Of a DNA stretch of 64,000 nt, positions 38,852 through 55,625 are shown one piece after another. The position numbers and the translations under genes are program-made. The stretch's first letter is position 1, and the number at the start of each line of letters is the position of its first letter. Source of the DNA: Candidatus Allofournierella merdavium (GTDB lineage Bacteria; Bacillota; Clostridia; Oscillospirales; Ruminococcaceae); NCBI GenBank assembly GCA_019118765.1, contig DWYI01000049.1, forward strand, positions 17,059-81,058, read 5' to 3'. The notes beneath the pieces were generated by a model. The model made no database searches, was not told the DNA's origin, and worked only from the letters and a program-made list of their open reading frames with translations.

Positions 38852-41419
38852 TTATGCCAGCCGGTGACGCTCCAGCCAGGGGGTGAGGGTGGGTTTGCCC
38901 GCGCGGATGCGCTTTGCCCGCGCCGTGAACACGACCAGCGTCAGCAGGGTGAACACCGCGGCCCACACCGCCAGATACACGGCGCAGCCGGTCACGTCCT
39001 GCCCGGCGCAGATGGCGCTGCGGAAGGCCTTGACGGTGTAGGTGAAGGGCACCCAATCGTACAGGTACTTCACAAAGGAGCCGGAAATTTCCAGCGGGTA
39101 GGTGCCCACCGAGCCGGCCAGCTGCACCACCATGAACACCAGCATCAAAAAGCTGCCGATGCAGCCCAGCAGGCTGGTGAAGAAGTACATCACCGACATG
39201 AAGGTGACCGCCGCCAGGCAGGCGATGAGCAGGGCCTGCCCCATCCGGGCGGGGGAGAAGCCGTCCAGCGCGTGCAGCGCGCCCACCATCACCACCGCCT
39301 GCAAGATCGCCACCGGGTAGAGCACCGACGCCTTGCTCAGCCACCAGGCCGCGCCGCTCTTCATCTCGCCCTGGTACTCGGTGAGGGGGTACATCAGGCT
39401 GAAAGCGATGCATCCCACCCACAGCGCCACCGACATCATGTAGGGCGCCATGGCGTGACCGTTGTTGGGCACATCGGTGAGTTGGGTCTCGCCGGCGCTC
39501 ACCGGGGCGGCGATCATCTCGGCCACTTCATCGCCGGTGTTGGTCTCGGCGATCTGCTGCGCTCCGTCCGAAAGGGATGCGCCCAGTGTGGCGGAGCCCT
39601 CCCGCAGCTGACCGAGGCCGTCGGTCAGTTCGCCGCTGCCCTCATAGAGTTTGGACGCGCCGTCCCCGATTTGGGCTGCGCCATCGGCCAGGGCCGCGGC
39701 GCCGCTGTTCAGCGCGGCGCTGTTCTTCTGCAATTCGCCGGTGCCGCTTGCCAGCTGCCCGGCGCCCTGCTGCAGGTCGCCGGCGCCGGTCTGCAGCCGG
39801 GTCAGCCCGTCGGTGAGAGCGGGCAGTTTGGCGGAGAGGTCGCCCAGGCCAGTCTGCAGCGCCGCGCTGCCCCCGGCCAGCTGGGCCAGGCCGCCGCTCA
39901 GGTCCTGCGCGCCCTGGCGCACCACACTGGTGCCCTCCTGCTGCAGCTTCTGGCCTCCCTGGGCGGCCTGGTCGATGCCCTGGGCCAGCAGCGGCGCCTG
40001 CTGGGCGAGGGTGGCGGTACCCTGCTGCAGGGTGGTGAGCCCGCCGGTCAATTCCGCGGATCGGCCTGCCATCTGGCCGAGCCCGTCGGCCAGCGTGGGC
40101 AGCCCCATGGCCGGGTCCACCAGGGCGGCGGCCCCGGCGGCGGACGTATCCACCCCGGCGGTGTATTCGCCGATGCCCGCCTGCAGCGCCGCAGCGCTCT
40201 GCTGCAGCTGGCTCAGGGTCTCCGGGGGGATGGTGCCCCCCTGCGTCGCCAGCGCCGTGATGCTTTGGACCAGCGCGGCCGCCCCGTCGTTCAGCGCGGC
40301 GGACTTGCCGGCCAGCGCCTGCAGGCCGTCGTTCAGCTGCACCGCGCCGTCCCGGGCGGTGTTCGCCCCGGCCGAGGCGGTCTGCAATCCGCTTTGCAGT
40401 TCGGTGGCGCCGGCAAGGGCCTGCTGGGCCCCGGCGTCCAGCGCCGCCGCGCTGTCGGGCAGGCCGGCGGTCTGGGTCTGAAGCTGGGCAAGGCCACCGT
40501 TCAGTTCGGTGAGTTTGTCGTCCACCTGGGCCGCCCCGGCGGCCAGCGTATCGCCGCCGGACTTGGCGCTGTCCACGCCGCTGGCCAGATCCTGCACGCC
40601 CTGGCTCAGTTTGCCCGCCCCCTCTGTCAATGCGGGGGCCGCCTGGCCCAGCTGCCCCGCGCCCTGGGCCAGCTGGTCGGCGCCGTCCTTCAGTTTGGCC
40701 GCGCCCTGGGCCGCCGCGTCTACCCCGGCGGTGTACTGGGCCAGCCCTTCGGTGAGCTGGGTGCTGCCGCTGCGGAAGGTGAGGGTGCTGTCCGCCAGAA
40801 GTTTGAGGTTGTCCCGGATGGTCTGGCCGCCCTGGGCCAGATCCTCCGCGCCCTCTTCCAGTTTTGCCGCCCCGTCGGCACCCTCCTGCAGCCCGTCGCC
40901 GATGTCCGCCAGCTGCTCCAGCATGGTCTCGGCGTAGGTCCGGGTCACCTCCTGGCGCACCTGGGCTTCGATCTTGGCCATGGCGCTCTCCCCCAGTTTG
41001 GAGGCGATGTAGTTGGTGCCAGGATTGGTCTCATAGGCCAGCTGCATCTGCCGGGGCGAGGCGTCGGTGACGGTGGCCGCACTGGCCGAAAAATCTTTGG
41101 GAATGGTGATGACCATGTAGTAGGTCCCGTCGGCCAGGCCCTGCTGCGCGGCCTGACTGTCCACAAAGTGAAAGTCGAGGGAGCCGTCCTCCCGCAGATT
41201 GTCCGCCAGTTCGCTGCCGATGGCCAGCGTCTCTCCCCGGTACTCCACCGGTTCGTCCTCGTTCACCACCGCCACCGGCAGGTGTTCCACACTGCCGTAG
41301 GGGTCCCACATGGACCCGAGAAACAGCGTGGTGTAGATGGTGGGGATGGCCACCACCGCCGCCATCACCACCAGCATGATCCAATTGCTCCGCAGAGCAT
41401 TCCATTCGTTCTTCAACAT
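38852..41419 (-). CDS. YhgE/Pip-domain membrane protein
   Basis: Track ORF trimmed to MLKNEWNALRSNWIMLVV. N-terminal TM helix, then YhgE motif LGSMWDPYG..LPVAVVNED. Long A/G/Q/L-rich repeat region and a C-terminal 5-TM ABC-2-like bundle. Confidence 0.85.
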   Translation of the reverse strand: MLKNEWNALRSNWIMLVVMAAVVAIPTIYTTLFLGSMWDPYGSVEHLPVAVVNEDEPVEYRGETLAIGSELADNLREDGSLDFHFVDSQAAQQGLADGTYYMVITIPKDFSASAATVTDASPRQMQLAYETNPGTNYIASKLGESAMAKIEAQVRQEVTRTYAETMLEQLADIGDGLQEGADGAAKLEEGAEDLAQGGQTIRDNLKLLADSTLTFRSGSTQLTEGLAQYTAGVDAAAQGAAKLKDGADQLAQGAGQLGQAAPALTEGAGKLSQGVQDLASGVDSAKSGGDTLAAGAAQVDDKLTELNGGLAQLQTQTAGLPDSAAALDAGAQQALAGATELQSGLQTASAGANTARDGAVQLNDGLQALAGKSAALNDGAAALVQSITALATQGGTIPPETLSQLQQSAAALQAGIGEYTAGVDTSAAGAAALVDPAMGLPTLADGLGQMAGRSAELTGGLTTLQQGTATLAQQAPLLAQGIDQAAQGGQKLQQEGTSVVRQGAQDLSGGLAQLAGGSAALQTGLGDLSAKLPALTDGLTRLQTGAGDLQQGAGQLASGTGELQKNSAALNSGAAALADGAAQIGDGASKLYEGSGELTDGLGQLREGSATLGASLSDGAQQIAETNTGDEVAEMIAAPVSAGETQLTDVPNNGHAMAPYMMSVALWVGCIAFSLMYPLTEYQGEMKSGAAWWLSKASVLYPVAILQAVVMVGALHALDGFSPARMGQALLIACLAAVTFMSVMYFFTSLLGCIGSFLMLVFMVVQLAGSVGTYPLEISGSFVKYLYDWVPFTYTVKAFRSAICAGQDVTGCAVYLAVWAAVFTLLTLVVFTARAKRIRAGKPTLTPWLERHRLA

Positions 41420-41642
41420 GGTTTGAAATTCCGCACCCTTTCCCCGCGACGTTAAAAGCGACACGAAGTTGATTTTTCATCGCGGTATTGCTTTTTCTGC
41501 GAAGAGAATTATACTGAAAGGGGGAAAAACAAACAACCGTTGATTTTTAGCCGAAATGATGTTTAATAGACATAATGACGAAAAACTGTTGAACATTCAA
41601 AAAAGATTTACAATTCGCCCGGCGGGCGAACAAGGAGAGGCC

Positions 41643-42230
41643 ATGGACGAGACAAAGGACCGGCGCATCCGGCGCACCCGCCGGCAGATACGGCGGGCGC
41701 TGGCGCAGCTGATGCAGCAAAAGAGCGCCAGCGAGGTGACGGTGAAGGAGTTGGTGGATCTGGCGGACATCAACCGCTCCACCTTCTACCTGCATTACAG
41801 CGATATCTTCGATCTGCTGGGAGCGGTGGAGGAGGAGTTGTTCCGTGAGATACGGGCGGCGGTGGACGCTCACCCGGTGAGCGCTTTTGAGCAGGAGGGT
41901 CTGGCCTTCATCGAGGAGGTCTTCTCGATCCTCTACGAAAACCGGGAGATCTGCGCCGCCCTGGTGGGCCCCCACGGGGACATGGCCTTCCTCCACCGCA
42001 TCGAGCGGATGATGGCGGAGAACGTGCTGCCCCGGCTGCAGGAGAATTTTCCCGACCGGCGCAGCAGCATCGACTACGGCTATGCCTTTTGCACCACCGG
42101 CGCGGTGGGCCTCATCAAGCACTGGCTGGCGGCCGGGTGCGCCGAGCCGCCCCAGGAGATGGCGCAGCAGACCTACCGGATGATCCACAACATGATGACC
42201 CTGGGCCTGGGTCATCCCGACCGGGGCTGA
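41643..42230 (+). CDS. TetR/AcrR-family transcriptional regulator
   Basis: RRIRRTRRQIRRALAQLMQQKSASEVTVKELVDLADINRSTFYLHY is a classic TetR N-terminal HTH. Confidence 0.9.
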   Translation: MDETKDRRIRRTRRQIRRALAQLMQQKSASEVTVKELVDLADINRSTFYLHYSDIFDLLGAVEEELFREIRAAVDAHPVSAFEQEGLAFIEEVFSILYENREICAALVGPHGDMAFLHRIERMMAENVLPRLQENFPDRRSSIDYGYAFCTTGAVGLIKHWLAAGCAEPPQEMAQQTYRMIHNMMTLGLGHPDRG

Positions 42231-42240
42231 CCGGCAGGAA

Positions 42241-42283
42241 AAACGCCCCCCATCGCCGCAAACAGCGGCGATGGGGGGCGTTT
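42241..42283. terminator. bidirectional intrinsic terminator
   Basis: aaacgccccccatcgccgc / aaaca / gcggcgatggggggcgttt, between convergent genes. Confidence 0.8.
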
Positions 42284-42305: not shown

Positions 42306-43343
42306 TCACTCGGCGCGCGCCATGGCCTGACGGAAATCGGACGTATCGGTGAAGATCTCGTTCTTGTAGGGATTCTTTTTCTGCTGCACGGCGCGCTTGA
42401 TAATAATGGCCAGCACGATGACGTTGGCGGCCAGCGCCAGAACGGCGATCACGCCCTGCATGGTGGGGTCGGCGGCGGTGGGCCGCACGGTGGGATCCAT
42501 CACCCCGTCGGCATACAGCACCGGCAGGGTGCTGAACACGCTGGCGTCCTGGAACAGGGGGAACACCTGGGCGAACATGCACCACAGCGCCAGGGTGTTG
42601 GCCCGGTTCTGGATCCAGCCGCCCTTGTTCCACAGCGCGTTGGCAAAGGTGGGGGCCAGCAGCAGGGCCAGGCCGCAGTACCAGGCGTGGGTGGGCAGGT
42701 TATTGTAGGTGTATTCGAAGTTCCACAGGTCGTAGGCGATGATGTACAGCACGGTCATGTCCGGCCAGAGCATGTCGTCCCGCTTTTTGGAGGAGTAGAT
42801 GCCCCACCAGCCGGTCATGCACAGGATGTTCAGGATGCCGGCGATGCCGTTCACCCAGTTCCACCAGCCGCCGTAGAGCCAGACGTTCTCGCTGGACAGC
42901 CACCACCGCTCGCCGGTGGCGGCCAGGGCCATGGTGCCCCGGATGCCGGACTCAAAGTCGCTTCCCACGGCGATGAGGATGTTGATGGCCACGATCACAA
43001 AGGGGAAGGCCTTGAACCAGTGGGTCTTGCCCACGCCCCACTTGTACTTGAGCATCATGAAGCCGATGCACCCGGCGGTGGCGGCGTAGAGCTTGGCGTA
43101 GTGGAACCAGCTGTTCATGTGGGTGTAGGTGGGGTTGGTCAGCGCCCATTCAGCCCCCATGGCCGCGCCCACATAGATGGAGATGAAATAGACGGTCAGC
43201 CCCGCGGGCAGGATGAGAAAGCAGAAGATGCCGCCCTGGGGCGTGCGGCGGGCCACCTCGTTGGCCAGAACCAGCCCCGCGAACACCAGCAGCCAGCCCA
43301 GCAGCTGCCAGCCGGCGGTATCCCCGTAGATTTGAAACAACAT
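42306..43343 (-). CDS. uncharacterised Trp-rich polytopic membrane protein (last gene of the hyp-containing operon)
   Basis: 345 aa with about 9-10 hydrophobic helices and no recognisable transporter signature. Starts 33 nt downstream of hypA on the same strand. Confidence 0.6.
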   Translation of the reverse strand: MLFQIYGDTAGWQLLGWLLVFAGLVLANEVARRTPQGGIFCFLILPAGLTVYFISIYVGAAMGAEWALTNPTYTHMNSWFHYAKLYAATAGCIGFMMLKYKWGVGKTHWFKAFPFVIVAINILIAVGSDFESGIRGTMALAATGERWWLSSENVWLYGGWWNWVNGIAGILNILCMTGWWGIYSSKKRDDMLWPDMTVLYIIAYDLWNFEYTYNNLPTHAWYCGLALLLAPTFANALWNKGGWIQNRANTLALWCMFAQVFPLFQDASVFSTLPVLYADGVMDPTVRPTAADPTMQGVIAVLALAANVIVLAIIIKRAVQQKKNPYKNEIFTDTSDFRQAMARAE

Positions 43344-43376
43344 GATGATTCCTCCTTGTCTATATACGACATTAAA

Positions 43377-43763
43377 TTACAAATTGGATTTTGGATTTTC
43401 GGTCAGAGGGGGCGGCTCGTCCGGCACCGCGATATCCCGGATGAGCATTTCATTGCCCTGCACCAGGTGGGTCTGCCCGCTGCCGCAGGCGGGGCAGGTG
43501 CGCCCATGTTCCAGTGTGGCGTACACCTGGCCGCACGCTTCGCACAGGGTGCGGGCGGGGATGGCCTTGACCCGCAGTTCCGCGCCGGTGAGCATTTCCG
43601 AGCGGGCGGCGGCCCACTTCCAGCAGTCCTGGAGGTAGTCTCCCACCACGCCGGACACCTCGCCCAGCTCCAGCGTCACGGCCTTCACCCGCTGGACGCC
43701 GTGCTCCCGGCCGGCGGCCTCCACCGTCTTGATGATGTGGAATACGATGCCCAGTTCGTGCAT
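43377..43763 (-). CDS. hypA: hydrogenase/urease-type nickel metallochaperone HypA
   Basis: Track ORF trimmed to MHELGIV (the MHE nickel site). Zinc knuckle CEACG..CPACGS. About 128 aa. Confidence 0.85.
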   Translation of the reverse strand: MHELGIVFHIIKTVEAAGREHGVQRVKAVTLELGEVSGVVGDYLQDCWKWAAARSEMLTGAELRVKAIPARTLCEACGQVYATLEHGRTCPACGSGQTHLVQGNEMLIRDIAVPDEPPPLTENPKSNL

Positions 43764-43768
43764 GGCCC

Positions 43769-46525
43769 TCAGCCCTTCCTGCCGAATTTCAGCCGCAGGC
43801 CCCGCTTCACCATGTAGGGCAGGATGGCCTTGAACTTGTCCTCGGTGCGCACCATGGTGCTGCACGCGGGCAGGTCGCGGGAGAGGTGGATGGCGTCAAA
43901 TTCGCACTTGGTGGTGCAGATGCCGCAGCCGATGCACTTGTTCGGGTCCACCACCGACGCGCCGCAGCCAAGGCAGCGGGCGGTCTCGGTCTTGACCTGT
44001 TCCTCGGTGAGGGTGCCGTGGGTGTCCCGGAAGGAGAGGCCCGGCGCGGGGGGCGCGGCCTCCTGGCGGGCGGCGTTGTCGTAACCGGCCAGCACCAGGT
44101 CGTCCTTGTCCAGCTGGATGAAGTCCCGCCGGTTGCGGCCGATGGTGAGGCTGGTGTCCGGCTGCACAAAGCGGTGGATGGACACCGCGCCCTCCTTGCC
44201 GGCGGCGATGGCCTCGATGGCAAAGCCGGGGCCGGTGTACACGTCGCCGCCCACGAACACATCCGGCTGGGCGGTCTGATAGGTGAGGGCGTCCGCCGCG
44301 GCGCGCCCGCCGCGGGCCAGCTCCACCTTGCTGCCCTGGAGCAGGTCACCCCAGAGAATGCTCTGGCCGATGCTCAGGAAGACCCGCTCGCAGGGCACCG
44401 TCACGGTGTCGGCCTCGTCGTACACCGGGGCAAAGCGGCCCTGGGCGTCGGTCACCGAGAGGCACCGCTTGAACACCACGCCGGTGACCTTTCCGTTCTC
44501 GGTGAGAATTTCCCTGGGGCCCCAGCCGCAGTTCACCCGCACCTGCTCGGCCTCGGCTTCGGCCACCTCCTCGGCGGTGGCGGGCATGGCCTGCCGGTCT
44601 TCCAGGCAGAACATGGAGACCTCCTCTGCGCCGCAGCGGCGGGCGGTGCGGGCCACGTCGATGGCCACGTTGCCGCCGCCGATGACCACGGCGCGGCCGG
44701 TCACGGAGGTGTGCTCGTCCTCGGCCACCGCGTGCAGGAAATCCACGGCGGTCATCACGCCCGCGGCGTCCTCGCCGGGCACGCCCGCCTTCCGGCCGCC
44801 CTGGCAGCCGATGGCGACGTAAAAAGCCTTGTAGCCTTCGGCCCGCAGCTGGTCCAGGGTCACGTCCCTGCCCACCTCCACGCCGCAGCGGATGTCCACG
44901 CCCATGGCGCGGATGACGTCGATCTCCGCCGCCACCACGTCCTTCTCCAGCTTGTAGGAGGGGATGCCGTACACCAGCATGCCGCCGGGCCGGGCGTTCT
45001 TTTCAAACACAGTGGGCTTGTAGCCCTTTTCCGCCAGGTAGTAGGCACAGGACAGGCCCGCCGGCCCCGCGCCGATGATGGCGATCTTTTCGTCAAAGCC
45101 GCCCCGGTTGGTGGGGGCCACCACCGGCGGGATGTAGCGGGTGGCGGCGTCCAGGTCCTTCTGGGCGATGAACTTCTTCACCGCGTCGATGGCCACCGCC
45201 GCGTCCACATTGCCGCGGGTGCAGGCGTCTTCGCAGCGGCGGTTGCACACCCGGCCGCAGACGGCGGGGAAGGGGTTCTCCTTCTTGATGAGGGCCAGCG
45301 CCTCGGTGTAGCGCCCCTGGGCCGCCATCTTCAGGTAGCCCTGCACCGCGATGTGGGCGGGGCAGGCGGTCTTGCAGGGGGCGGTGCCGGTGTCGTGGCA
45401 GTTCACGCGGTTTTTGTCCCGGTAGTCCACCGTCCATTTCTCCGGGCCCCAGGGGGTCACCGCCGCATCCTCTATCCGGGGATACTCCACCCGGCCGTTT
45501 TTGGTGCACAGCTTCTGACCCAGCTTTACCGCGCCTGCCGGGCAGAACTCCACACAGCGGCCGCAGGCCACACAGTTCTCGGTGGTCACATGGGCCACAT
45601 AGGCCGACCGGCCCAGGTTGGGGGTGTTGAACATCTGGCTCAGCCGCAAAGCGTTGCAGATGTTCACGTTGCAGTTGCAGATGGCGAAAATCTTGTTCTC
45701 GCCGTCGATGTTGGTGATCTGGTGCACAAAGCCGTTGTCCTCGGCCCGCTTTAAAATGCGCAGCACCTCGTCGTAGTCCACATAGCGGCCTTTTTTGGTC
45801 TCCACCAGATAGTCCGCCATGTCGCCCACGCCGATGCACCAGTCCTCCGGGTCGTCGCCGCAGCCCTCGCCCAGCTTCGCCCGGCTCATCCGGCAGCTGC
45901 AGGGGCTGGCGGCGTACTTGCCGTCGTACTTTTTCAGCCAGTGGCTGATGTGCTCGATGTCCACCGACTGATTCTCGGTCTCGATGGCCTTCTCCACCGG
46001 GATGACGTGCATGCCGATGCCCGCGCCGCCCGGCGGGATCATGGCGGGGATGTGCTCCAGGGGCAGAAAGGTCATCCGCTCGAAGAAGGCGGTCACCTCC
46101 GGATGCTCCTCGATCTGGTGCTTCTGCATATTGAAGAACTCGGCGCTGCCCGGCACGAACATGGGCAGCACATACTGCTTTTCGTGCCGCTCGTTCTCCC
46201 AGTTGTATTCCAGCAGGCCCACATAGCTCATCTGGTAGAGCAGCGGCTCCAGCTCCTCGGCGCTGCGGCCGGTGGCCTTCACCAGCTGGGGCAGCGTCAT
46301 GGGCTTGCGCACCTCCATCTTGAGGGCCACGTCCGCCATCTCGTCGGTCACAAGGCCCGCCAGGCCCCAGTATTCCGGGTCGTCGCCGGTGACGCCCTTC
46401 AGCTTCGCGGGGATGCGGTCGGTGATCTTGCGCCCCAGCTTCAGAATCTTCTCCCGGGGCTGCTCGTCCCGGGGGATCTCAAAGGACAGTTTGCTCTCGT
46501 CCAGGGGGAAATGGGTCTCACTCAT
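43769..46525 (-). CDS. multidomain Fe-S flavoprotein oxidoreductase (GltD-like NAD(P)H/FAD module plus ferredoxin domains and a Cys-rich N-terminal domain)
   Basis: Track ORF trimmed to MSETHF. CVACGRCVEFCPAGA and CIGCGICTTKCEFDA are 4Fe-4S motifs. CKTACPAH..CGRVCNRRCEDAC is a GltD-type cluster region. IAIIGAGPAGLSCAYYL is an FAD loop. The N-terminal ~330 aa carry SPCSCR..CGDDPEDWC and AICNCNVNIC motifs. Confidence 0.8.
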   Translation of the reverse strand: MSETHFPLDESKLSFEIPRDEQPREKILKLGRKITDRIPAKLKGVTGDDPEYWGLAGLVTDEMADVALKMEVRKPMTLPQLVKATGRSAEELEPLLYQMSYVGLLEYNWENERHEKQYVLPMFVPGSAEFFNMQKHQIEEHPEVTAFFERMTFLPLEHIPAMIPPGGAGIGMHVIPVEKAIETENQSVDIEHISHWLKKYDGKYAASPCSCRMSRAKLGEGCGDDPEDWCIGVGDMADYLVETKKGRYVDYDEVLRILKRAEDNGFVHQITNIDGENKIFAICNCNVNICNALRLSQMFNTPNLGRSAYVAHVTTENCVACGRCVEFCPAGAVKLGQKLCTKNGRVEYPRIEDAAVTPWGPEKWTVDYRDKNRVNCHDTGTAPCKTACPAHIAVQGYLKMAAQGRYTEALALIKKENPFPAVCGRVCNRRCEDACTRGNVDAAVAIDAVKKFIAQKDLDAATRYIPPVVAPTNRGGFDEKIAIIGAGPAGLSCAYYLAEKGYKPTVFEKNARPGGMLVYGIPSYKLEKDVVAAEIDVIRAMGVDIRCGVEVGRDVTLDQLRAEGYKAFYVAIGCQGGRKAGVPGEDAAGVMTAVDFLHAVAEDEHTSVTGRAVVIGGGNVAIDVARTARRCGAEEVSMFCLEDRQAMPATAEEVAEAEAEQVRVNCGWGPREILTENGKVTGVVFKRCLSVTDAQGRFAPVYDEADTVTVPCERVFLSIGQSILWGDLLQGSKVELARGGRAAADALTYQTAQPDVFVGGDVYTGPGFAIEAIAAGKEGAVSIHRFVQPDTSLTIGRNRRDFIQLDKDDLVLAGYDNAARQEAAPPAPGLSFRDTHGTLTEEQVKTETARCLGCGASVVDPNKCIGCGICTTKCEFDAIHLSRDLPACSTMVRTEDKFKAILPYMVKRGLRLKFGRKG

Positions 46526-47231
46526 GGCCGTTCTCCTTTTTCGTTTCTTCGCCCCGCCAGGCGCGCACCTCCCGGCGCAGCCAGTCGTACCAGGCGTCCA
46601 TTCCCTCGCCGGTGGCGGCGCAGATGGGGATGACCTGCGCCTTCGGGTTGCGCATCCGCACATATTCGGTGCATTTCGCAAGATCAAAGTTGAAATAGGG
46701 CAGCACGTCGATCTTGTTCACCAGCACCACGTCGCACACCTGGAACATCAGCGGGTACTTCAGGGGCTTGTCGTGGCCCTCCGGCACCGACAGGATCATG
46801 GCGTTCTTCGCCGCGCCGGTGTCAAATTCCGCCGGGCAGACCAGGTTGCCCACGTTCTCCAGAATGGCCAGTTCCACGTCGTCGAGGCCAAGGCCGTCCA
46901 GCCCCTGCCGGGTCATGCCCGCGTCCAGGTGGCACATTCCGCCGGTGTGCAGCTGGATGGACTTCGCACCCGCCGCCGCGATGGCGCGGGCGTCCACGTC
47001 CGAGTCGATGTCCGCCTCCATCACGCCGATCTTGAACTCGCCCTTCAGCGCCGCGATGGTGCGGGTCAGGGTAGTGGTCTTGCCCGAGCCGGGGCTGGAC
47101 ATCAGGTTCAAAAGGAACACGCCCTTTTCCTTCAGCTCGGCCCGCAGCTGCGCCGCCTCCTGGTCGTTGGAGGCGAACACGCTCTGGCGGATCTCCAGGA
47201 TTTTAAATGATTCCATTCTCTCACGCTCCAT
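46518..47231 (-). CDS. hypB: nickel-inserting GTPase HypB (G3E family)
   Basis: P-loop SSPGSGKTT, CH motif GGMCHLDA, ENVGNLVCPAEFD and NKID. The stop overlaps the downstream start by 8 nt (ATGAGTGA). The start may instead be ATG 47216. Confidence 0.88.
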   Translation of the reverse strand: MERERMESFKILEIRQSVFASNDQEAAQLRAELKEKGVFLLNLMSSPGSGKTTTLTRTIAALKGEFKIGVMEADIDSDVDARAIAAAGAKSIQLHTGGMCHLDAGMTRQGLDGLGLDDVELAILENVGNLVCPAEFDTGAAKNAMILSVPEGHDKPLKYPLMFQVCDVVLVNKIDVLPYFNFDLAKCTEYVRMRNPKAQVIPICAATGEGMDAWYDWLRREVRAWRGEETKKENGHE

Positions 47232-47420
47232 GGGTCATAACATTGGCCCAATGTGGTCGGGCCAGCGAAAAAGCGCACAGGGCCTGATAAGCGCCGCTGC
47301 ACGTTAAAAGAATAACATTCCCGGGAGAAAAGGTCAATGTGCCGGGAATTTTTCGCCTCTTTGTGCAAAAAAACTCCTTGGCCTTCGGCCTTTTGCATGG
47401 TAAAATAAGGGTGTGGTATC

Positions 47421-47431
47421 TGGTATGACCA
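47421..47431. promoter_or_regulatory. candidate GntR/FadR-type operator (TGGT-N3-ACCA)
   Basis: tggtatgacca palindrome, with an adjacent tggtat direct copy at 47414. Located in the divergent hypB / gntR intergenic region, just upstream of the gntR RBS. Confidence 0.35.
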
Positions 47432-47450: not shown

Positions 47451-48158
47451 GTGGAATTTGAGAAACTCTCCGCCCCCAGCCTGAAGGATCTGTTCGTAAA
47501 GCAGATACAGGGAATGATCCTCTCGGGGGAGCTGGCCGAGGGAGCGATGCTGCCTCCCGAGCGGGAACTGGCCCGTCAGATGCAGGTGAGCCGGGCGGTG
47601 GTGAACGGGGGCCTGGCGGAACTGGCGGCGCAAGGGTTTGTGGAGATACGCCCGCGGCAGGGCACCTGCGTGGCGAATTACCGGCGCAACGGCAACCTGA
47701 GCACCCTCATCGCCATCATGGAGTACAACGGCGGCACCCTGGGCCGGGAGGAGATACGCTCCATCCTGGAGGTGCGCCGTGCGCTGGAGCATCTGGCGGT
47801 GGGGCTCATCCTGCGCAACGCCACCGACCAGGACATGAGCCGCCTGGGGGACCATGTGGCGCGCATTGCCGGGGCCAAAACGCCCCAGCAGGCGGCGGAG
47901 CGGGCTTTTGAGTTCCAGCACGAACTGGCGCTCATCAGTGGCAACAGCATCCTGCCGCTGTTTTACTATTCCTTCCGGGCGCCGGTCATCATGCTGTGGG
48001 TGCGCTTTTGCCGCCGCTACGGCATCGAGGCCCTGTGCCGCAACACGGAACTGCTCTACACCCATCTGAAAAACCGGGACGAGGCGCAGCTGCGCCGCTG
48101 GATCGACAGCTACCTGGGCGAAGCCATTGAGGGCAGCCAGCAGGTGTACAGCGAGTGA
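47451..48158 (+). CDS. GntR-family (FadR/FCD subfamily) transcriptional regulator
   Basis: LPPERELARQMQVSRAVVNGGLAELAAQGFVEIRPRQGTCV winged HTH, plus a helical C-terminal domain. GTG start behind gaggagg. Confidence 0.88.
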   Translation: MEFEKLSAPSLKDLFVKQIQGMILSGELAEGAMLPPERELARQMQVSRAVVNGGLAELAAQGFVEIRPRQGTCVANYRRNGNLSTLIAIMEYNGGTLGREEIRSILEVRRALEHLAVGLILRNATDQDMSRLGDHVARIAGAKTPQQAAERAFEFQHELALISGNSILPLFYYSFRAPVIMLWVRFCRRYGIEALCRNTELLYTHLKNRDEAQLRRWIDSYLGEAIEGSQQVYSE

Positions 48159-48291: not shown

Positions 48292-48813
48292 ATGAATCAG
48301 GTGCTCGACGCCATCATCACCCGCCGCAGTGTGCGCAGCTACAAGCCGGACCCCATCCCCGAAGACGTGCTGGAACGCATTCTCACCGCAGGGCAGTACG
48401 CCGCCACCGGCATGAACCGCCAGAGCCCCATCATCCTGGCGGTCACCGACAAGGCCGTGCGGGACGAACTCTCGGCCATGAATGCGGCCATCATGGGCGC
48501 CGACAAGGACCCTTTCTACGGCGCGCCGGTGGTGCTGGTGGTACTGGCCAGCAAGGCCGCCCCCACCTATGTGTACGACGGCAGCCTGGTGATGGGCAAC
48601 CTGATGCTGGCCGCCCACGCCGAGGGCCTGGGCAGCTGCTGGATCCACCGGGCCAAGGAGGAGTTTGAGAGCGAGGAGGGCAAGGCCCTGCTGCGCAGGC
48701 TGGGCATTGACGGCGAATACGAGGGCATCGGCCACTGCATCCTGGGCTATGCCGCGGAGGAGCCGAAGGCCGCCGCGCCCCGCAAGCAGGATTACGTCTA
48801 CTGGCTGCGCTGA
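48292..48813 (+). CDS. nitroreductase-family flavoprotein
   Basis: Track ORF trimmed to MNQVLDAIITRRSVRSYKPDPIPEDVLERIL. Typical nitroreductase N-terminus and length. Confidence 0.85.
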   Translation: MNQVLDAIITRRSVRSYKPDPIPEDVLERILTAGQYAATGMNRQSPIILAVTDKAVRDELSAMNAAIMGADKDPFYGAPVVLVVLASKAAPTYVYDGSLVMGNLMLAAHAEGLGSCWIHRAKEEFESEEGKALLRRLGIDGEYEGIGHCILGYAAEEPKAAAPRKQDYVYWLR

Positions 48814-50306: not shown

Positions 50307-51707
50307 TTATTGGGGGGTGTTTTTGCACATGTCGCGAACGTACTGTGCGTAGATCAGGCCGCTGGCCGCCTGGATGCGCACCAGCTTGCGGATGGGAATG
50401 GCGGTGTAGTGGATGTGCTCCTCCAGATAGGCGCTGTCCTGGGCCAGGCGCTGCCCGGCCACCGCTTCCACCTCGTCCAGGATCCTGCGGGCCTCCGCGG
50501 TCAGGTTCTCCGCGTGCTCCTTTTCGTAAATGCAGGTGCGCCGGGCCAGAGCCATGTTCAGATTCAGATAGAACCGGGCACTGTAGAGGTTGTCAAACTC
50601 CTGGGCCACCGTGGCGGTCTTGCGGAATTCCGGGTTGCTCTTGGCCCATTCCCGGCTGGCGTCCTTGTTGAAATAACTCTTCACCCGATCCTCCACCGCC
50701 AGGAAGAAGGGGTTCCAGGTGGTGATCACCGGCTGGAGTTTCTCGTACAGTTCCTTCATCAGCTTGCCGATGGCCTCGCTCTGGTCAAAACTCTCCAGCA
50801 TGCAGTCCAGGCGGCTGCGCTGACCGGGCGAGGTGTCGTCCACCCGGGGATCGAAGAAATAGGGCATCTCGTTCACCAGGGAGTACACCGGCTTTTTCAG
50901 CAGCCGGGTGGCGTACTCGTCGCTGGAGGAGCCGGAGGTGATCAGCTTGGCCGGATCCTCATCGGGCTGGAACTTGGCCAGATACTCATAGTGGGGGATG
51001 ACGCCCACGCTCTCGAATACCGCGGGATAGAGCTCCACACAATAGGGCATCTCCGGCTCGCCCAGGTTGAGGGGCACCCCCTCCTCCTTGGGTTGGCGGT
51101 AGAGCTGCTGATAGAGCCCTTCATCCCCCCCGGTGAGGTACCAGTAGCACCCGCCGAAGCCTGCGTTGTGCAGGGAGTAGATAAAGTCGGGCCGGTGCTC
51201 CTGGATGATCTTCATCAGAGCCTGGGTCTCGGGGATGGGCTTGTCAAAGTGCAGGGTCTTGTAGTCGATGGGGAAACTCCACTCTACCTGCTGGGCGTAG
51301 GCGGGGCGGTAGAAGTTGCGGGCGTAGTGGGTGATGGTGAAGGGCCCCTTGAACCAGCCCTCGTTAAGGCTGGTGCCGTCGGGGTCGCTGGTCTTGACGA
51401 TGTACCAGGTAAAGTCCAGTTCCTCCCGCAGGGCGGCGTTCTCGGCCAGCTCCCGGGTGAAGAAGTCCAGCATCATGGCGCCGATGGGCTCGTTGGGATG
51501 GGGGCAGCCGAAAATCAGGGCGTTTCGGCTGCCGCTGCCGATGGTGAGGCAGTAGATGGGCCTTCCCCATCGGGAGGTGCCCACCTGATCCACCTTTACC
51601 ACATCGGGAAACTCCTGGGCCAGGGCCAGGGTGCGCTGATCCATCTCCTCTACGGTGAAAAATTCCTTATAATCCGGAACGCGGTCCAGTATCTCCTGTA
51701 AATTCAA
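50307..51707 (-). CDS. M14-family metallocarboxypeptidase-like protein, cytoplasmic (copy 2)
   Basis: CPHPNEPIG (HxxE zinc motif). No signal peptide. Paralogue of the 57221..58642 gene, alignable over the full length by eye. Confidence 0.75.
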   Translation of the reverse strand: MNLQEILDRVPDYKEFFTVEEMDQRTLALAQEFPDVVKVDQVGTSRWGRPIYCLTIGSGSRNALIFGCPHPNEPIGAMMLDFFTRELAENAALREELDFTWYIVKTSDPDGTSLNEGWFKGPFTITHYARNFYRPAYAQQVEWSFPIDYKTLHFDKPIPETQALMKIIQEHRPDFIYSLHNAGFGGCYWYLTGGDEGLYQQLYRQPKEEGVPLNLGEPEMPYCVELYPAVFESVGVIPHYEYLAKFQPDEDPAKLITSGSSSDEYATRLLKKPVYSLVNEMPYFFDPRVDDTSPGQRSRLDCMLESFDQSEAIGKLMKELYEKLQPVITTWNPFFLAVEDRVKSYFNKDASREWAKSNPEFRKTATVAQEFDNLYSARFYLNLNMALARRTCIYEKEHAENLTAEARRILDEVEAVAGQRLAQDSAYLEEHIHYTAIPIRKLVRIQAASGLIYAQYVRDMCKNTPQ

Positions 51708-51723
51708 CCTGCTTCGACCTCCT

Positions 51724-52722
51724 TTAGTCCTCCTCCAGGCAGTGACAGCTCACCTGTCGCCCGTCGGGAAGGGTGCGCATGGGCGGATATTCCTTGAAAC
51801 ACTTCTCACAGGCCTTGAAGCACCGGCCGGCAAAGTAGCAGCCCGGCCCGGGATCCACCGGGGAGGGCGGTTCGCCGTCGATCTTGATGACCTCTTTCTC
51901 TTTAAAGTCAATGGAGGCGCAGTTGGAGATCAGCGCCTGGGTATAGGGGTGCTTGGGATTCTGGATGATGGTGTCGGTGTCGCCCTGCTCCACGATGCGG
52001 CCCAGATACATCACGCCTACCCGGTGGCAGATGTAACGGATCACCGCGATGTCGTGGCTGATGAAGAGGATGGCCGTCTCGTGGGTCTTGCACAGGTCGA
52101 TGAGCATATTGATGATGTCCGCCCGCACCGACACATCCAGCATGGACACCGGTTCGTCCACCACCAGGAACAGGGGATTGAGCAGCATGCTGCGCAAAAT
52201 GGAAATGCGCTGAAGCTGGCCGCCGGAGAGTTCGTGGGGATAGCGGCTCAAAAAGTCCTTGGCGGGAACGAGGCCGCCCTCCTCCAGGGCCTTGACGCAC
52301 ATGTCCATGCGCTCGGCGTCGTCGGCGCCGATGCCATGGAGTTTCAGGGGCCGGGTCATGATGGCCCCGATGGTGTCGTTGGGGGTAAAGGTGTCAAAGG
52401 GGTTTTGGAAGACCGTTTGCACCATGCGGCGGAACTTTTTGGGGTTCTTTTTCAGAATGGCGCCGCTGTCCTCACCGCCGAAGAGCACCTGCCCCTCGCT
52501 GGGCTGCTCCAGACGCACCAGCAGCCGGCCCAGGGTGGATTTGCCGCAGCCGCTCTCTCCGATGATGCCAAAGACCTCGCCTTTGTACACGTCGAAGCTG
52601 ACGCCGTCCACCGCCTGTACCCACTTCTTCTTGCCAAAGGAGAACAAGCTGTCGTTCCCCCGCTGGCGGTACCATTTTTTCAGCCCCGCCACCTGGATGA
52701 CAGGGACGTTCTGTTCGCTCAT
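51724..52722 (-). CDS. oligopeptide/dipeptide ABC transporter ATPase (OppF/DppF-like)
   Basis: Walker A GESGCGKST, signature LSGGQLQR, Walker B VVDEPVSMLD, and a C-terminal oligopeptide-type extension with Cys residues. Confidence 0.9.
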   Translation of the reverse strand: MSEQNVPVIQVAGLKKWYRQRGNDSLFSFGKKKWVQAVDGVSFDVYKGEVFGIIGESGCGKSTLGRLLVRLEQPSEGQVLFGGEDSGAILKKNPKKFRRMVQTVFQNPFDTFTPNDTIGAIMTRPLKLHGIGADDAERMDMCVKALEEGGLVPAKDFLSRYPHELSGGQLQRISILRSMLLNPLFLVVDEPVSMLDVSVRADIINMLIDLCKTHETAILFISHDIAVIRYICHRVGVMYLGRIVEQGDTDTIIQNPKHPYTQALISNCASIDFKEKEVIKIDGEPPSPVDPGPGCYFAGRCFKACEKCFKEYPPMRTLPDGRQVSCHCLEED

Positions 52723-53699
52723 GCTCCTTCACCTCCGTCATAGAGATGGCAGGCCACCTTGTGGACCTCCGACATCCGCCGCTCGGCCGGCCGCTCCTGG
52801 AAACAGCGGGGGGTGGCGTTGGGGCAGCGGGCCGCGAAAATGCACCCGCCGGGCGGGTCGGCCAGGTCAGGCAGGCTGCCGGGTATGGATTTCAGGGCGC
52901 TCTTCTCCCCGTGGAGAGAGGGGAAGGACTGGATCAGGCCGCGGGTGTAGGGATGCAGGGGATTGCTCAGCACATCCCGCACATAGCCGAACTCCATCAT
53001 CTGCCCGGCATACATAACGATGATCTTCTTGCAGGAGGTGGCCACCACCGACAGGTCATGGGTGATCATCAACCGGGTCACCGAAATCTGGTTCTCCATC
53101 TGCTTGATCTCATTGAGGATCTGGCCCTGTGTCACCACATCCAGAGCGGTGGTGGCCTCGTCCATGATGAGCAGATCCGGGTCAAAGAGCAGGCTCAGGG
53201 CGATGTTGATCCGCTGGAGCATGCCGCCGGAAAGTTCATGGGGATAGAGCTTATACACCCGGGGGGCCAGGTTGACCATCTCCAGCAGGTGAATCACCCG
53301 CTTGTAGATCTCTTCCTTGGATGCCCGGGGCTCGTGCACCCGGTAGATGTCTTCAAACTGTTCGCCGATGCGGTGCACGGGGCTGAGGCTGTTCATGGAT
53401 TTCTGAAACACCACGGACAGCTTCTTCCAGCGCAGTTCCTTCAGCCGGGCGGGGCTGACGGTGAGCAGGTCCTCCTGCTCGAAAAGCACCTGGCCGGAGA
53501 TCTCCGTGGTGCGGGGGTCGTGGAGACGAAGCACCGCCATGGCCAGGGTGGACTTGCCCGAGCCGGACTCGCCCACGATCCCCAGGGAGTCGCCTTTTTC
53601 GATCTCCATCGACACATGATCCACAGCCCGCACCCGCTTGGCGCCCGAGCGGTAGGTGACGCATAAGTCCTTGATATCCAAAATAGGCATTATCCGCAC
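52719..53699 (-). CDS. oligopeptide/dipeptide ABC transporter ATPase (OppD/DppD-like)
   Basis: Walker A GESGSGKST, signature LSGGMLQR, Walker B IMDEATTALD. Overlaps the downstream gene by 4 nt. Confidence 0.9.
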   Translation of the reverse strand: MRIMPILDIKDLCVTYRSGAKRVRAVDHVSMEIEKGDSLGIVGESGSGKSTLAMAVLRLHDPRTTEISGQVLFEQEDLLTVSPARLKELRWKKLSVVFQKSMNSLSPVHRIGEQFEDIYRVHEPRASKEEIYKRVIHLLEMVNLAPRVYKLYPHELSGGMLQRINIALSLLFDPDLLIMDEATTALDVVTQGQILNEIKQMENQISVTRLMITHDLSVVATSCKKIIVMYAGQMMEFGYVRDVLSNPLHPYTRGLIQSFPSLHGEKSALKSIPGSLPDLADPPGGCIFAARCPNATPRCFQERPAERRMSEVHKVACHLYDGGEGA

Positions 53700-53703
53700 C
53701 TCC

Positions 53704-54558
53704 TCAAATCTTCTTCATCTTGGGGTTGAGCGCGAAGTTCAGCCCGTCGCCGATCAGGTAGAAGATCAGCACGATGAACACGATGGCCAGGCCGGCGAAG
53801 GTGGACATCCACCAGCCGTTGGCCGACAGATACTGCTTGCCGTCAAAGATCATCTGGCCCCAACTCACCACATTGGGGTCGCCCAGGCCCAAAAAGCTCA
53901 GGCTGGCCTCGGTGAGGATGGCTTTGGCCACGTCCATGGTGGTGTTGGCCACGATGGGGAACAGGCCGTTGGGGATGATGTACTTGAAGAGCACCCGGGG
54001 CCGGGATTCACCCATGGCCGTTGCGCTCTTCACGAAAGTGCGCTCTTTCAGGCTCATGGCCTGCACCCGCATCATACGGGCATTGCTGGGCCAGGAGGTC
54101 AGGCCGATGACCAGCATGACGTTGACCATGTTGCTGCCGAACAGCGCCACAATGATCAGGATGAGGAAGAAGGTGGGGATCATCAGGAAGATGTTGGTGA
54201 CCTCCGCCACGCACTTGTCCAGCTTGCCACCGTAGAATCCGGCATAGGCCCCCAGCAGGGTGCCGATGACGCCGGAGATCAGCGCTGAGATCATGCCGAT
54301 GGCCAGGGAGGTGCGGCTGCCGAAGATTACCATGCTCAGGATGTCCTGGCCCATGTTGTTTGTGCCCATCCAGTGATTGTTGGTGCCCGGAGACACCAGC
54401 AGATCATCGCTCATGTAATAGGGGTCAAAAGGCGCCAGAATGGGGGCAAAAATGACCACGAGCAGCACCACGGCAAAAAGTGCCAGACCCAGCCGGAGCT
54501 GGCCGCTGGCAGCGACCAGTTTGCACAGCCGCTGCCAAAAGGCTTTCGCTTTTTCCAT
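53704..54558 (-). CDS. peptide ABC transporter permease (OppC/DppC-like)
   Basis: BPD-type permease with the EAA-like loop SATAMGESRPRVLFKYIIPN. Confidence 0.88.
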   Translation of the reverse strand: MEKAKAFWQRLCKLVAASGQLRLGLALFAVVLLVVIFAPILAPFDPYYMSDDLLVSPGTNNHWMGTNNMGQDILSMVIFGSRTSLAIGMISALISGVIGTLLGAYAGFYGGKLDKCVAEVTNIFLMIPTFFLILIIVALFGSNMVNVMLVIGLTSWPSNARMMRVQAMSLKERTFVKSATAMGESRPRVLFKYIIPNGLFPIVANTTMDVAKAILTEASLSFLGLGDPNVVSWGQMIFDGKQYLSANGWWMSTFAGLAIVFIVLIFYLIGDGLNFALNPKMKKI

Positions 54559-54570
54559 GTCTGCACCTCC

Positions 54571-55536
54571 TTACTCGTAGCGGATCCGGGGATCCAGCCA
54601 TGCGTAGATCAGGTCCACCACGATCATGACCAGGGCCACCGAGATGGCGATGATGAGATACACGCCCATGAGCACGTTGTAGTCGCGCATCATGATGGAG
54701 CGGTACATGAACGCGCCGATGCCCGGCCAGGAAAACACGATCTCCACCAGGGTGGAGCCCGCCACCACATAGGCCAGGTTGATGCCGAAGATGGTGATGA
54801 TGGGCAGGATGGCGTTTTTAAAGACGTACTTGCGGAAGATCTTGCCCTCGCTCATGCCGGTGACCCGGAAGGTGGTGATGAAGTCCTCCGCCATCACCTG
54901 CATCACCGAGGATTTGGTGATGCGGAAATAGGTGGGGATCTGTACCGCCACCAGCGTCAGGCAGGGCAGCACCATGTGCCGTGCCACGTCCAGCACATAG
55001 GCAAAGCCTTCGTGATCCGCCCGCATATCCACCATGCCTTGCGTGGGCAGAAGCTTGAATGTGGAGGCAAAGATCAGGATCAGCATGATCCCCACCCAGA
55101 AGGACGGCATGGCGTTGAGCACATAGGCCACGCCGGAAAACACCTTGTCCATCACGGCGCCGTGGTTCTTTCCGGCGTACAGCCCCAAAAAGCCGCCCGC
55201 CAGCACCGCCAGCACCGCGCTCACCCCTGACAGCAGCAGCGAAGGGCCGATGTGGCTCAGGATCAGCTGGGCAACCGGCTGGTTGTACAGATAGGAATCG
55301 CCCATGTCGCCGTGCAGCAGGGTGGTAACATACCGATAAAACTGGACGTGAAAGGGTTGATCCAGGCCGTACTTCACCGTCAGCGCATCAATGAGCTCCT
55401 GAGAGGGGTTGTCAAAGCCGGCCATGATCCGGGCGGGATTGCCCGGCGCCAGTTTGATAATGGTGAAGTTGATCAATACCACGACAGCCACAATGGCCAA
55501 GGCAGAGATGATGCGTTTGAGCAGATATTTTTTCAT
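54571..55536 (-). CDS. peptide ABC transporter permease (OppB/DppB-like)
   Basis: MKKYLLKRIISALAIV start typical of OppB/DppB. Contains an EAA-like loop (FRVTGMSEGKIFRKYVFKNA). Confidence 0.88.
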   Translation of the reverse strand: MKKYLLKRIISALAIVAVVVLINFTIIKLAPGNPARIMAGFDNPSQELIDALTVKYGLDQPFHVQFYRYVTTLLHGDMGDSYLYNQPVAQLILSHIGPSLLLSGVSAVLAVLAGGFLGLYAGKNHGAVMDKVFSGVAYVLNAMPSFWVGIMLILIFASTFKLLPTQGMVDMRADHEGFAYVLDVARHMVLPCLTLVAVQIPTYFRITKSSVMQVMAEDFITTFRVTGMSEGKIFRKYVFKNAILPIITIFGINLAYVVAGSTLVEIVFSWPGIGAFMYRSIMMRDYNVLMGVYLIIAISVALVMIVVDLIYAWLDPRIRYE

Positions 55537-55625
55537 ATGCGGTGTCAGACCACCTTTCGCTGCGGATAAAGCAGAGGGAGGAAACGGCCCCTGCCCGGTG
55601 CAGGGGCCGTTTCCATCTGTGTCGG

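Follow-up and report, generated by a model that had tools for sequence, protein, structure and literature searches.

The operon around hypB and hypA

We analysed a stretch of 64,000 nucleotides from Candidatus Allofournierella merdavium (contig DWYI01000049.1, positions 17,059 to 81,058 of the forward strand), called the window in what follows, and within it a group of four adjoining genes that encode the nickel chaperone HypB, a large iron-sulfur flavoprotein, the nickel chaperone HypA and a polytopic membrane protein of the DUF5692 family (Table 1). An original prediction for this locus had described four same-strand genes with very tight spacing, and the listing of open reading frames (ORFs) and their translation bore this out: all four are encoded on the minus strand, the end of hypB overlaps the start of the oxidoreductase gene by 8 nt (46518-46525, ...CAT GAG TGA, read as ATG AGT GA(A)), 5 nt separate the oxidoreductase stop from the beginning of hypA, and the membrane gene follows hypA after 33 nt. 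The membrane protein also proved to be as rich in Trp as had been claimed (20 Trp, 5.8% of its residues). Judged from its sequence, this group is one more copy of the IsrA-type gene cluster that was published in 2023 and that is suspected of encoding a new kind of nickel enzyme.

Table 1. Positions of the operon, its control elements and the parts of the flavoprotein within the window.
Feature	Position	Strand	Remarks
hypB	46518-47231	-	237 amino acids; TIGR00073 241 bits (cut-off 121); PF02492 match
Oxidoreductase (iron-sulfur flavoprotein, IsrA-family 'clade 9')	43769-46525	-	918 amino acids; proposed nickel client and catalytic subunit
hypA	43377-43763	-	128 amino acids; PF01155 107.8 bits
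DUF5692 polytopic membrane protein	42306-43343	-	345 amino acids; PF18948 470 bits
Sigma-70-like promoter of the hypB operon	47309-47337	-	TTGACC, 17 nt, TG-TATTCT; consensus match only
Intrinsic terminator	42239-42283	.	19-bp G+C-rich stem; T-run on the operon strand; A-run ahead of the stem
N-terminal domain, residues 1-305	45611-46525	-	winged-helix-like subdomain and Cys-rich alpha/beta subdomain
Cys6 site (C209-x-C211-R, C230, C283-N-C285, C290)	45656-45901	-	matches IsrA 'cluster V'; candidate Ni/Fe-S active site
Canonical 4Fe-4S motif C318-x2-C321-x2-C324-x3-C328	45515-45601	-	Pfam and alignment
GltD/NfnB-like electron-input module	44156-45415	-	two [4Fe-4S] clusters (Fer4_20), flavin adenine dinucleotide (FAD) site, NAD(P)H site
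C-terminal 4Fe-4S ferredoxin motif	43832-43960	-	Fer4, residues 858-879
GntR regulator with FCD domain (FadR subfamily)	47451-48158	+	GntR 55.8 bits, FCD 48.9 bits
Palindromic GntR-type operator TGGTATGACCA	47421-47431	.	exact TGGT-N3-ACCA; just downstream of the regulator's own -10
Second operator copy TGGTCGGGCCA	47254-47264	.	one mismatch; after the operon promoter and ahead of hypB
Regulator's own promoter	47378-47406

The four genes are predicted to form one operon, being framed as one unit by the sigma-70-like promoter ahead of hypB and the intrinsic terminator behind the membrane gene. The terminator folds at -53.2 kcal/mol (z = -6.6), with equally good folds in none of 200 shuffled sequences, and probably both closes the operon and ends the TetR gene that converges on it. 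The second ATG of hypB (47216, MESFKIL...) is the more likely start, as it has a GGAG 9 nt upstream and agrees with the N-termini of homologs; the first (47231) is without a Shine-Dalgarno sequence.

Both chaperones belong to the same families, and carry the same metal-binding motifs, as the HypA and HypB proteins that serve hydrogenase or the urease of Helicobacter. HypB is a member of the nickel-binding G3E GTPase family, with the motifs GSGKT (residues 48-52) and NKID (172-175) and the CH...C nickel site formed by C100-H101 and C132; it has no His-rich N-terminus and is thus of the short type, like that of H. pylori. HypA starts with MHE, the M-H-E nickel motif, and has the zinc site C74xxC77...C90xxC93.

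Architecture of the flavoprotein and its likeness to IsrA

The original prediction had described the flavoprotein as a combination of a GltD-like FAD/NAD(P)H module, several 4Fe-4S motifs and a Cys-rich N-terminus of about 330 residues with the segments SPCSCR, CGDDPEDWC and AICNCNVNIC, all of which were present. Pfam and NCBIfam profiles assigned residues 371-790 to the GltD/NfnB-like module (Fer4_20 and Pyr_redox_2) and located 4Fe-4S motif regions at about residues 309-337 and 856-898, and neither collection had a match for residues 1-305. The best solved relatives of the module were 9bov and 8oh5 (both HylB-like), 9n5u (NfnA) and 5jca (NfnI), to which residues 371-860 could be aligned with E values of 1e-60 to 1e-92, and with which the flavoprotein shares two [4Fe-4S] clusters and the FAD and NAD(P)H sites. 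These NfnB/GltD/DsrL-type proteins differ, however, in having neither an N-terminal Cys6 domain nor a link to HypA and HypB, and in the flavoprotein the module would be the electron-input part only. Sequence and profile searches of solved structures returned nothing that spans residues 1-300, the profile search finding only ferredoxin motifs past position 280.

An exhaustive HMMER search with the N-terminal domain returned 1938 relatives. Full-length homologs of 751-945 amino acids, with 29-58% identity to the window flavoprotein, were aligned in sets of 14 and 11 diverse sequences, and in both sets C209, C211, C230, C283, C285 and C290 were invariant down to 29% identity, as were R212, E262, H268 and N284 alongside them. 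C223, the first Cys of CGDDPEDWC, was not conserved among the aligned homologs. We refer to the six invariant cysteines as the Cys6 site.

An AlphaFold2 model of the N-terminal domain, built on the 11-sequence alignment (predicted local distance difference test [pLDDT] 69, predicted template-modelling score 0.73), placed a winged-helix-like part ahead of an alpha/beta part that bears the cysteines. Foldseek searches of the Protein Data Bank (PDB) with this model gave only weak matches to MarR-like winged helices (E > 0.03, residues about 50-120) and no fold match for the Cys-rich part. The A-cluster domain of acetyl-CoA synthase, which we had considered as a possible counterpart for the CxC motifs, was not among the Foldseek matches.

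The closest described system is that of Kronen et al., who in 2023 described IsrA of Acetobacterium wieringae ISORED-2 as a putative isoprene reductase (mSystems, PMC10134865). The N-terminal region of IsrA (VUZ27132.1, 901 amino acids) is unannotated, and the protein further has four canonical [4Fe-4S] sites, a FAD/NADH module of the NfnB-like kind and a 'cluster V' of six cysteines that include the CxC motifs C180/C182 and C254/C256; this cluster was modelled as Fe/S at 13.5 A from cluster IV, a distance that allows electron transfer (PMC10134865). The isr operon comprises isrA, two hypA genes, hypB and a gene for a 350-residue ferredoxin that shares the N-terminal domain, in a genome that lacks a [NiFe]-hydrogenase; reverse transcription PCR placed the five genes on one transcript, and proteomics showed IsrA, HypA and HypB to be increased during growth with isoprene, with log2 fold changes of 6.2 to 10.7 (PMC10134865). 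The same authors listed 988 'clade 9' homologs with HypA (73%), HypB (56%), DUF5692 (40%) and TetR (21%) as neighbours, and proposed IsrA as a nickel client of HypA and HypB with cluster V as the likely site (PMC10134865).

The window protein resembles this description in its length of about 900 residues, its unannotated N-terminal domain of about 300 residues, its four canonical [4Fe-4S] sites and its NfnB/GltD-like module. It also resembles it in its Cys6 site, where the CxC motifs C209/C211 and C283/C285 stand 74 residues apart, the same spacing as in IsrA, and in the presence of adjoining hypA and hypB genes in a genome without [NiFe]-hydrogenase and with DUF5692, a frequent neighbour in the family. 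On its architecture and its neighbourhood the protein is therefore assigned to 'clade 9'. A search among the homologs for a protein with the exact Cys positions and length of IsrA gave no match. A 26-residue insertion at IsrA positions 756-782 is unique to the isoprene reducers and Pelotomaculum (PMC10134865); the window flavoprotein (P0002) has no insertion in its C-terminal third relative to most homologs, and in one of the homologs, P0192, 26 residues are inserted at positions 714-739 of its own numbering.

The window operon differs from the isr operon in several respects. It has a single hypA instead of two and the gene order hypB-enzyme-hypA-DUF5692, and the enzyme is the only N-domain match in the genome, so that the five-gene set of the isr operon, with its 350-residue ferredoxin, is not what is found here. 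Its regulator is of the GntR/FCD type, in contrast to the TetR neighbour of the IsrA family, and its host is a gut bacterium of the Oscillospirales rather than an acetogen.

Coupling to HypA and the case for nickel

The gene neighbourhood was examined in 80 loci, obtained from a scan of one genome per species and representing those most similar to the query rather than a random sample; they span Lachnospiraceae, Oscillospiraceae, Collinsella, Erysipelotrichaceae and others, and their neighbours were scored by tblastn. A hypA gene stood directly downstream of the enzyme homolog in 67 of the 80 loci, and the synteny is conserved across relatives. The fetched flanks held hypB in 49 loci, DUF5692 in 44 and a homolog of the GntR regulator in 20. 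Expressed as co-occurrence and set beside the values of Kronen et al., this amounts to 0.84 against 0.73 for HypA, 0.61 against 0.56 for HypB and 0.55 against 0.40 for DUF5692.

A phyletic profile was drawn up for 151 genomes from the bacterial family to which the window belongs. The N-terminal domain was present in 16 of them, and all 16 had a HypA above the cut-off (Fisher p = 6e-19); HypA occurred without the N-terminal domain in only three genomes, each with a [NiFe]-hydrogenase-like gene, and a hydrogenase was absent from 15 of the 16 enzyme-bearing genomes. DUF5692 had 12 carriers, all of which fell within the 16 (Fisher p = 1e-14). In a small tree, 11 IsrA-linked HypAs, the window HypA among them, were split from four hydrogenase-linked HypAs of the same bacterial family with branch support of 96/95, so that they form a group of their own, and the N-terminal M-H-E was kept in all 11.

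Several further observations were made among the related genomes and loci. One genome of the family (G096) carries three enzyme paralogues (C26:9242, C15:54870 and C19:44744; N-domain identities 95%, 41% and 38%), and each of these is followed at a distance of about 2.7 kb by a hypA of its own, which suggests several substrate specificities in one cell. The few [NiFe]-hydrogenase-like genes of the family (G025:C195, G071:C402, G076:C349, G079:C1 and G024:C23) are short frames of 360-436 amino acids that match the profile over its N- or C-terminal part alone, and hypA adjoins them in three genomes. Cassettes 63-76% identical to that of the window (L009, L018, L049, L017, L044 and L062-L081) were found in metagenome-assembled genomes labelled Alloprevotella/Bacteroidaceae, in Atopobiaceae and in many Collinsella, which points to horizontal transfer of the cassette between phyla, although contamination of the Bacteroidales bins is also possible.

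The organism's own genome is available as a 2.63-Mb assembly of 92 contigs, estimated to be 92% complete, and the whole of it was searched in six frames. There were no matches to the [NiFe]-hydrogenase large subunit (PF00374), to HypD (PF01924; no separate search was made for HypC, HypE or HypF) or to carbon monoxide dehydrogenase/prismane (PF03063), and hypA was present as a single copy. A sub-threshold lead for urease alpha (21.9 bits) came from a D-aminoacylase-type amidohydrolase and was rejected. The original prediction had pointed to a window free of hydrogenase and hypCDEF genes and had called for a genome-wide check for [NiFe]-hydrogenase, urease, carbon monoxide dehydrogenase and further hypAB copies; the first point held, within the limit just given for HypC, HypE and HypF, and the check found no [NiFe]-hydrogenase, urease or carbon monoxide dehydrogenase gene and no second hypA. 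This sets the locus apart from [NiFe]-hydrogenase maturation, where a large-subunit client and HypD would be expected. Pfam searches also found no CbiM/NikM or NiCoT nickel importer in the genome, and the one match in a motif scan of all ORFs for these importers was spurious, lying in a wrong-frame ORF. A LarA-like protein of 506 amino acids (C78:17622-19142; Lar_N 137 bits), encoded next to ATP-binding cassette (ABC) importer genes, is a second putative nickel enzyme in this genome.

Synteny and co-occurrence together strongly support the flavoprotein, and not a hydrogenase, as the putative client of HypA and HypB. With no [NiFe]-hydrogenase in the genome and the synteny conserved, the genomic result that the original prediction had named among the grounds for giving up this client role did not arise. 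The prediction's further suggestion that such a client was so far unrecognised did not stand, since the same family, with its Cys6 site and its HypA/HypB/DUF5692 neighbourhood, had been published in 2023 and the inference was already in the literature (PMC10134865).

The reading that we favour, with a probability of about 0.72, is that the four genes make up an operon which is complete in itself, is controlled by a repressor and encodes an IsrA-family ('clade 9') reductase with a nickel site loaded by HypA and HypB. In this model, NAD(P)H would reduce the FAD of the GltD/NfnB-like module within the 918-residue protein, and electrons would reach the Cys6 site of the N-terminal domain by way of the four canonical [4Fe-4S] clusters. 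The GTPase HypB and HypA would load nickel into the Cys6 site, giving a Ni or Ni-Fe-S centre, at which a conjugated, poorly activated substrate, probably hydrophobic or carboxylated, would be reduced at a C=C bond, by analogy with the reduction of isoprene by IsrA. The GntR/FCD protein would repress the operon through TGGT-N3-ACCA until an effector, probably a carboxylate, arrives, and DUF5692 would work with the enzyme on either the substrate or the metal side. What the sequences show of this model is the arrangement of the genes, the family assignment on architecture, the conservation of Cys6 site, synteny and operator, and the coupling across genomes to HypA and DUF5692 with no hydrogenase at hand; the nickel, the course of the electrons, the type of substrate and the part of DUF5692 are inferred.

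Several points weigh against this reading. No nickel measurement exists for any IsrA-family protein, the question is still given as open in a 2026 preprint, and we found no later biochemical characterisation of the IsrA family in the literature. Membership of clade 9 rests on architecture, motif spacing and neighbourhood, with IsrA compared by its description, and of the genes of the isoprene operon the second hypA and that for the N-domain ferredoxin are absent here. The confidence of the AlphaFold2 model of the N-terminal domain is moderate, its pLDDT of 69 falling below 50 around residues 155-189. Neither hypB nor DUF5692 is obligatory in cis, as the former was missing from the fetched flanks in 31 of the 80 loci and the latter in 36. 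The LarA-like gene represents another putative nickel enzyme in the genome, so that nickel handling is not needed for the hypB-hypA operon alone. Finally, isoprene is an unlikely substrate because the host is a gut anaerobe.

The part that DUF5692 would play is the first matter on which readings diverge. The membrane protein matched the DUF5692 profile over nearly its full length (PF18948 positions 3-304 of 304), which was its only Pfam match, and its AlphaFold2 model (pLDDT 80) was a bundle of about 9-10 helices for which Foldseek found no fold match in the PDB (best E 0.27, template-modelling score <= 0.3). Its invariant polar residues include His81, His219, Cys92, Cys175, Cys223, Cys255 and several Asp, Glu and Asn. 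It is rather unlikely that DUF5692 is a nickel importer that feeds HypA and HypB, rather than a partner on the substrate side. Such a role would suit its position as the last gene of the operon, its confinement to enzyme carriers (12 of 12), the invariant His81 and His219 with four Cys and several Asp/Glu, and the absence of CbiM/NikM and NiCoT from the genome. However, the protein resembled no transporter in sequence or fold, including the known nickel importers NiCoT and CbiM/NikM, and DUF5692 was missing from four of the 16 enzyme-bearing genomes as well as from the flanks noted above. Its richness in Trp and other aromatic residues would suit the handling of lipids at least equally well, and an importer operon of the Opp/Dpp/Nik family (peptide/nickel-type ABC importer, 50307-58642) lies 3 kb from the cassette.

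A somewhat less probable alternative is that the Cys6 site holds an Fe-S cluster only, perhaps a non-cubane one, and that HypA and HypB bring another metal such as zinc or act in assembly or quality control. G3E GTPases and HypA also bind zinc, and the lack of a CbiM/NikM or NiCoT importer is consistent with this alternative, as is the fact that cluster V was at first modelled as Fe/S (PMC10134865). Set against these points are the M-H-E of every IsrA-linked HypA examined, the CH...C site of HypB and the equivalog-level score of the latter, above its cut-off; the retention of a nickel-specific chaperone pair would be hard to explain if no nickel were involved.

It is very unlikely that HypA and HypB serve some other nickel enzyme elsewhere (such as a glyoxalase, the LarA-like protein or a hydrogenase encoded in the 8% of the genome that the assembly lacks) and that their position around the flavoprotein gene is uninformative, for although the assembly is incomplete, a LarA-like gene is present and HypA and HypB are pleiotropic in Helicobacter, where they serve both urease and hydrogenase, hypA lies directly behind the enzyme homolog in most of the species sampled, HypA accompanies the enzyme in every carrier genome and otherwise occurs only alongside a hydrogenase-like gene, the numbers of paralogues and hypA genes match in G096, and LarA-type enzymes get their nickel through LarC (not searched for here) rather than through HypA and HypB.

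Regulation, substrate and significance

The claim that a divergent GntR regulator with a TGGT-N3-ACCA site lies upstream of the operon was confirmed, an exact copy of the site being located ahead of the regulator gene (Table 1). The divergent intergenic region between the GntR gene and hypB is 219 bp long and holds the operon promoter and both operator copies. Within the 64 kb of the window, TGGT-N3-ACCA with up to one mismatch occurred 14 times against 22 expected, which is not above chance; in related GntR-hypB intergenic regions, however, the motif was found in 10 of 11, with two exact copies in five of the 11, which argues for a real conserved operator despite the chance-level count in the window. 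The GntR/FCD protein is the probable repressor of the operon. Its FCD domain places it in the FadR branch of the GntR family, for which carboxylates and acyl-CoAs are known as effectors.

Two genes close to the operon were considered separately. The TetR regulator beyond the terminator (41556-42230, plus strand; TetR_N and TetR_C_8) is divergent from a gene for an 870-residue ABC-2 membrane protein of the YhgE/Pip type (38852-41464, minus strand), and because of this pairing and its recurrence in only one of the 80 loci we rejected it as the TetR neighbour of the published clusters. A nitroreductase-family gene (48292-48813, plus strand) follows directly after the GntR gene and is probably unrelated, since just one of the 80 loci (L054) has such a gene close to the cassette. 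When all ORFs of the 80 loci were clustered, no further recurrent partner gene emerged beyond hypA, hypB, DUF5692 and the GntR/TetR regulators, which leaves the neighbourhood uninformative as to the substrate.

We also considered the possibility, which we regard as improbable, that the gut/rumen branch of the family is a fatty-acid biohydrogenation reductase. To our knowledge, no gene has so far been named for that reductase. In such a scheme, DUF5692 would be a membrane isomerase or handler similar to BBI that makes a conjugated diene from linoleic or linolenic acid. At a new Ni-Fe-S centre, the flavoprotein matured by HypA and HypB would reduce this unactivated diene, so that conjugated linoleic acid would yield vaccenic acid, and the FadR-type GntR protein would sense the fatty acid. 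BBI, the membrane linoleic acid isomerase of Bifidobacterium breve, is genetically validated and has 330 amino acids and nine membrane helices (PMC9636412, PMC12048573, PMC11812354). DUF5692 is likened to it by size (324-350 against 330 amino acids) and predicted nine-helix topology alone; the product of BBI is a conjugated diene made from a fatty acid, the kind of substrate that an IsrA-like enzyme would reduce, and BBI differs from the cassette in acting alone, without a reductase. Several observations are compatible with the scheme and do not test it. Isoprene, the one substrate proposed for the family, is a conjugated diene, and the clusters of A. woodii and A. fimetarium contain an oleate hydratase gene (PMC10134865). 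The conversion of linoleic acid to vaccenic acid has been reported for Roseburia hominis (PMC7524357), which bears a hypB-enzyme-hypA cassette (L032).

The operon of the window is confirmatory with respect to the proposal of 2023, to which it adds a clean phyletic profile, a separate group of IsrA-linked HypAs and a conserved GntR operator. By record titles, the cassette occurs in many abundant human and animal gut genera, namely Gemmiger/Subdoligranulum, Roseburia, Lachnospira, Agathobacter and Collinsella, so that the substrate could be a compound of quantitative importance from the diet or the host. If nickel is confirmed, the family would represent a new class of nickel enzyme served by HypA and HypB, and the third kind of client of these chaperones after [NiFe]-hydrogenase and the urease of Helicobacter. 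If the favoured reading holds, nickel would be used in these bacteria for the hydrogenation of alkenes, a reaction that is familiar from industrial catalysis.

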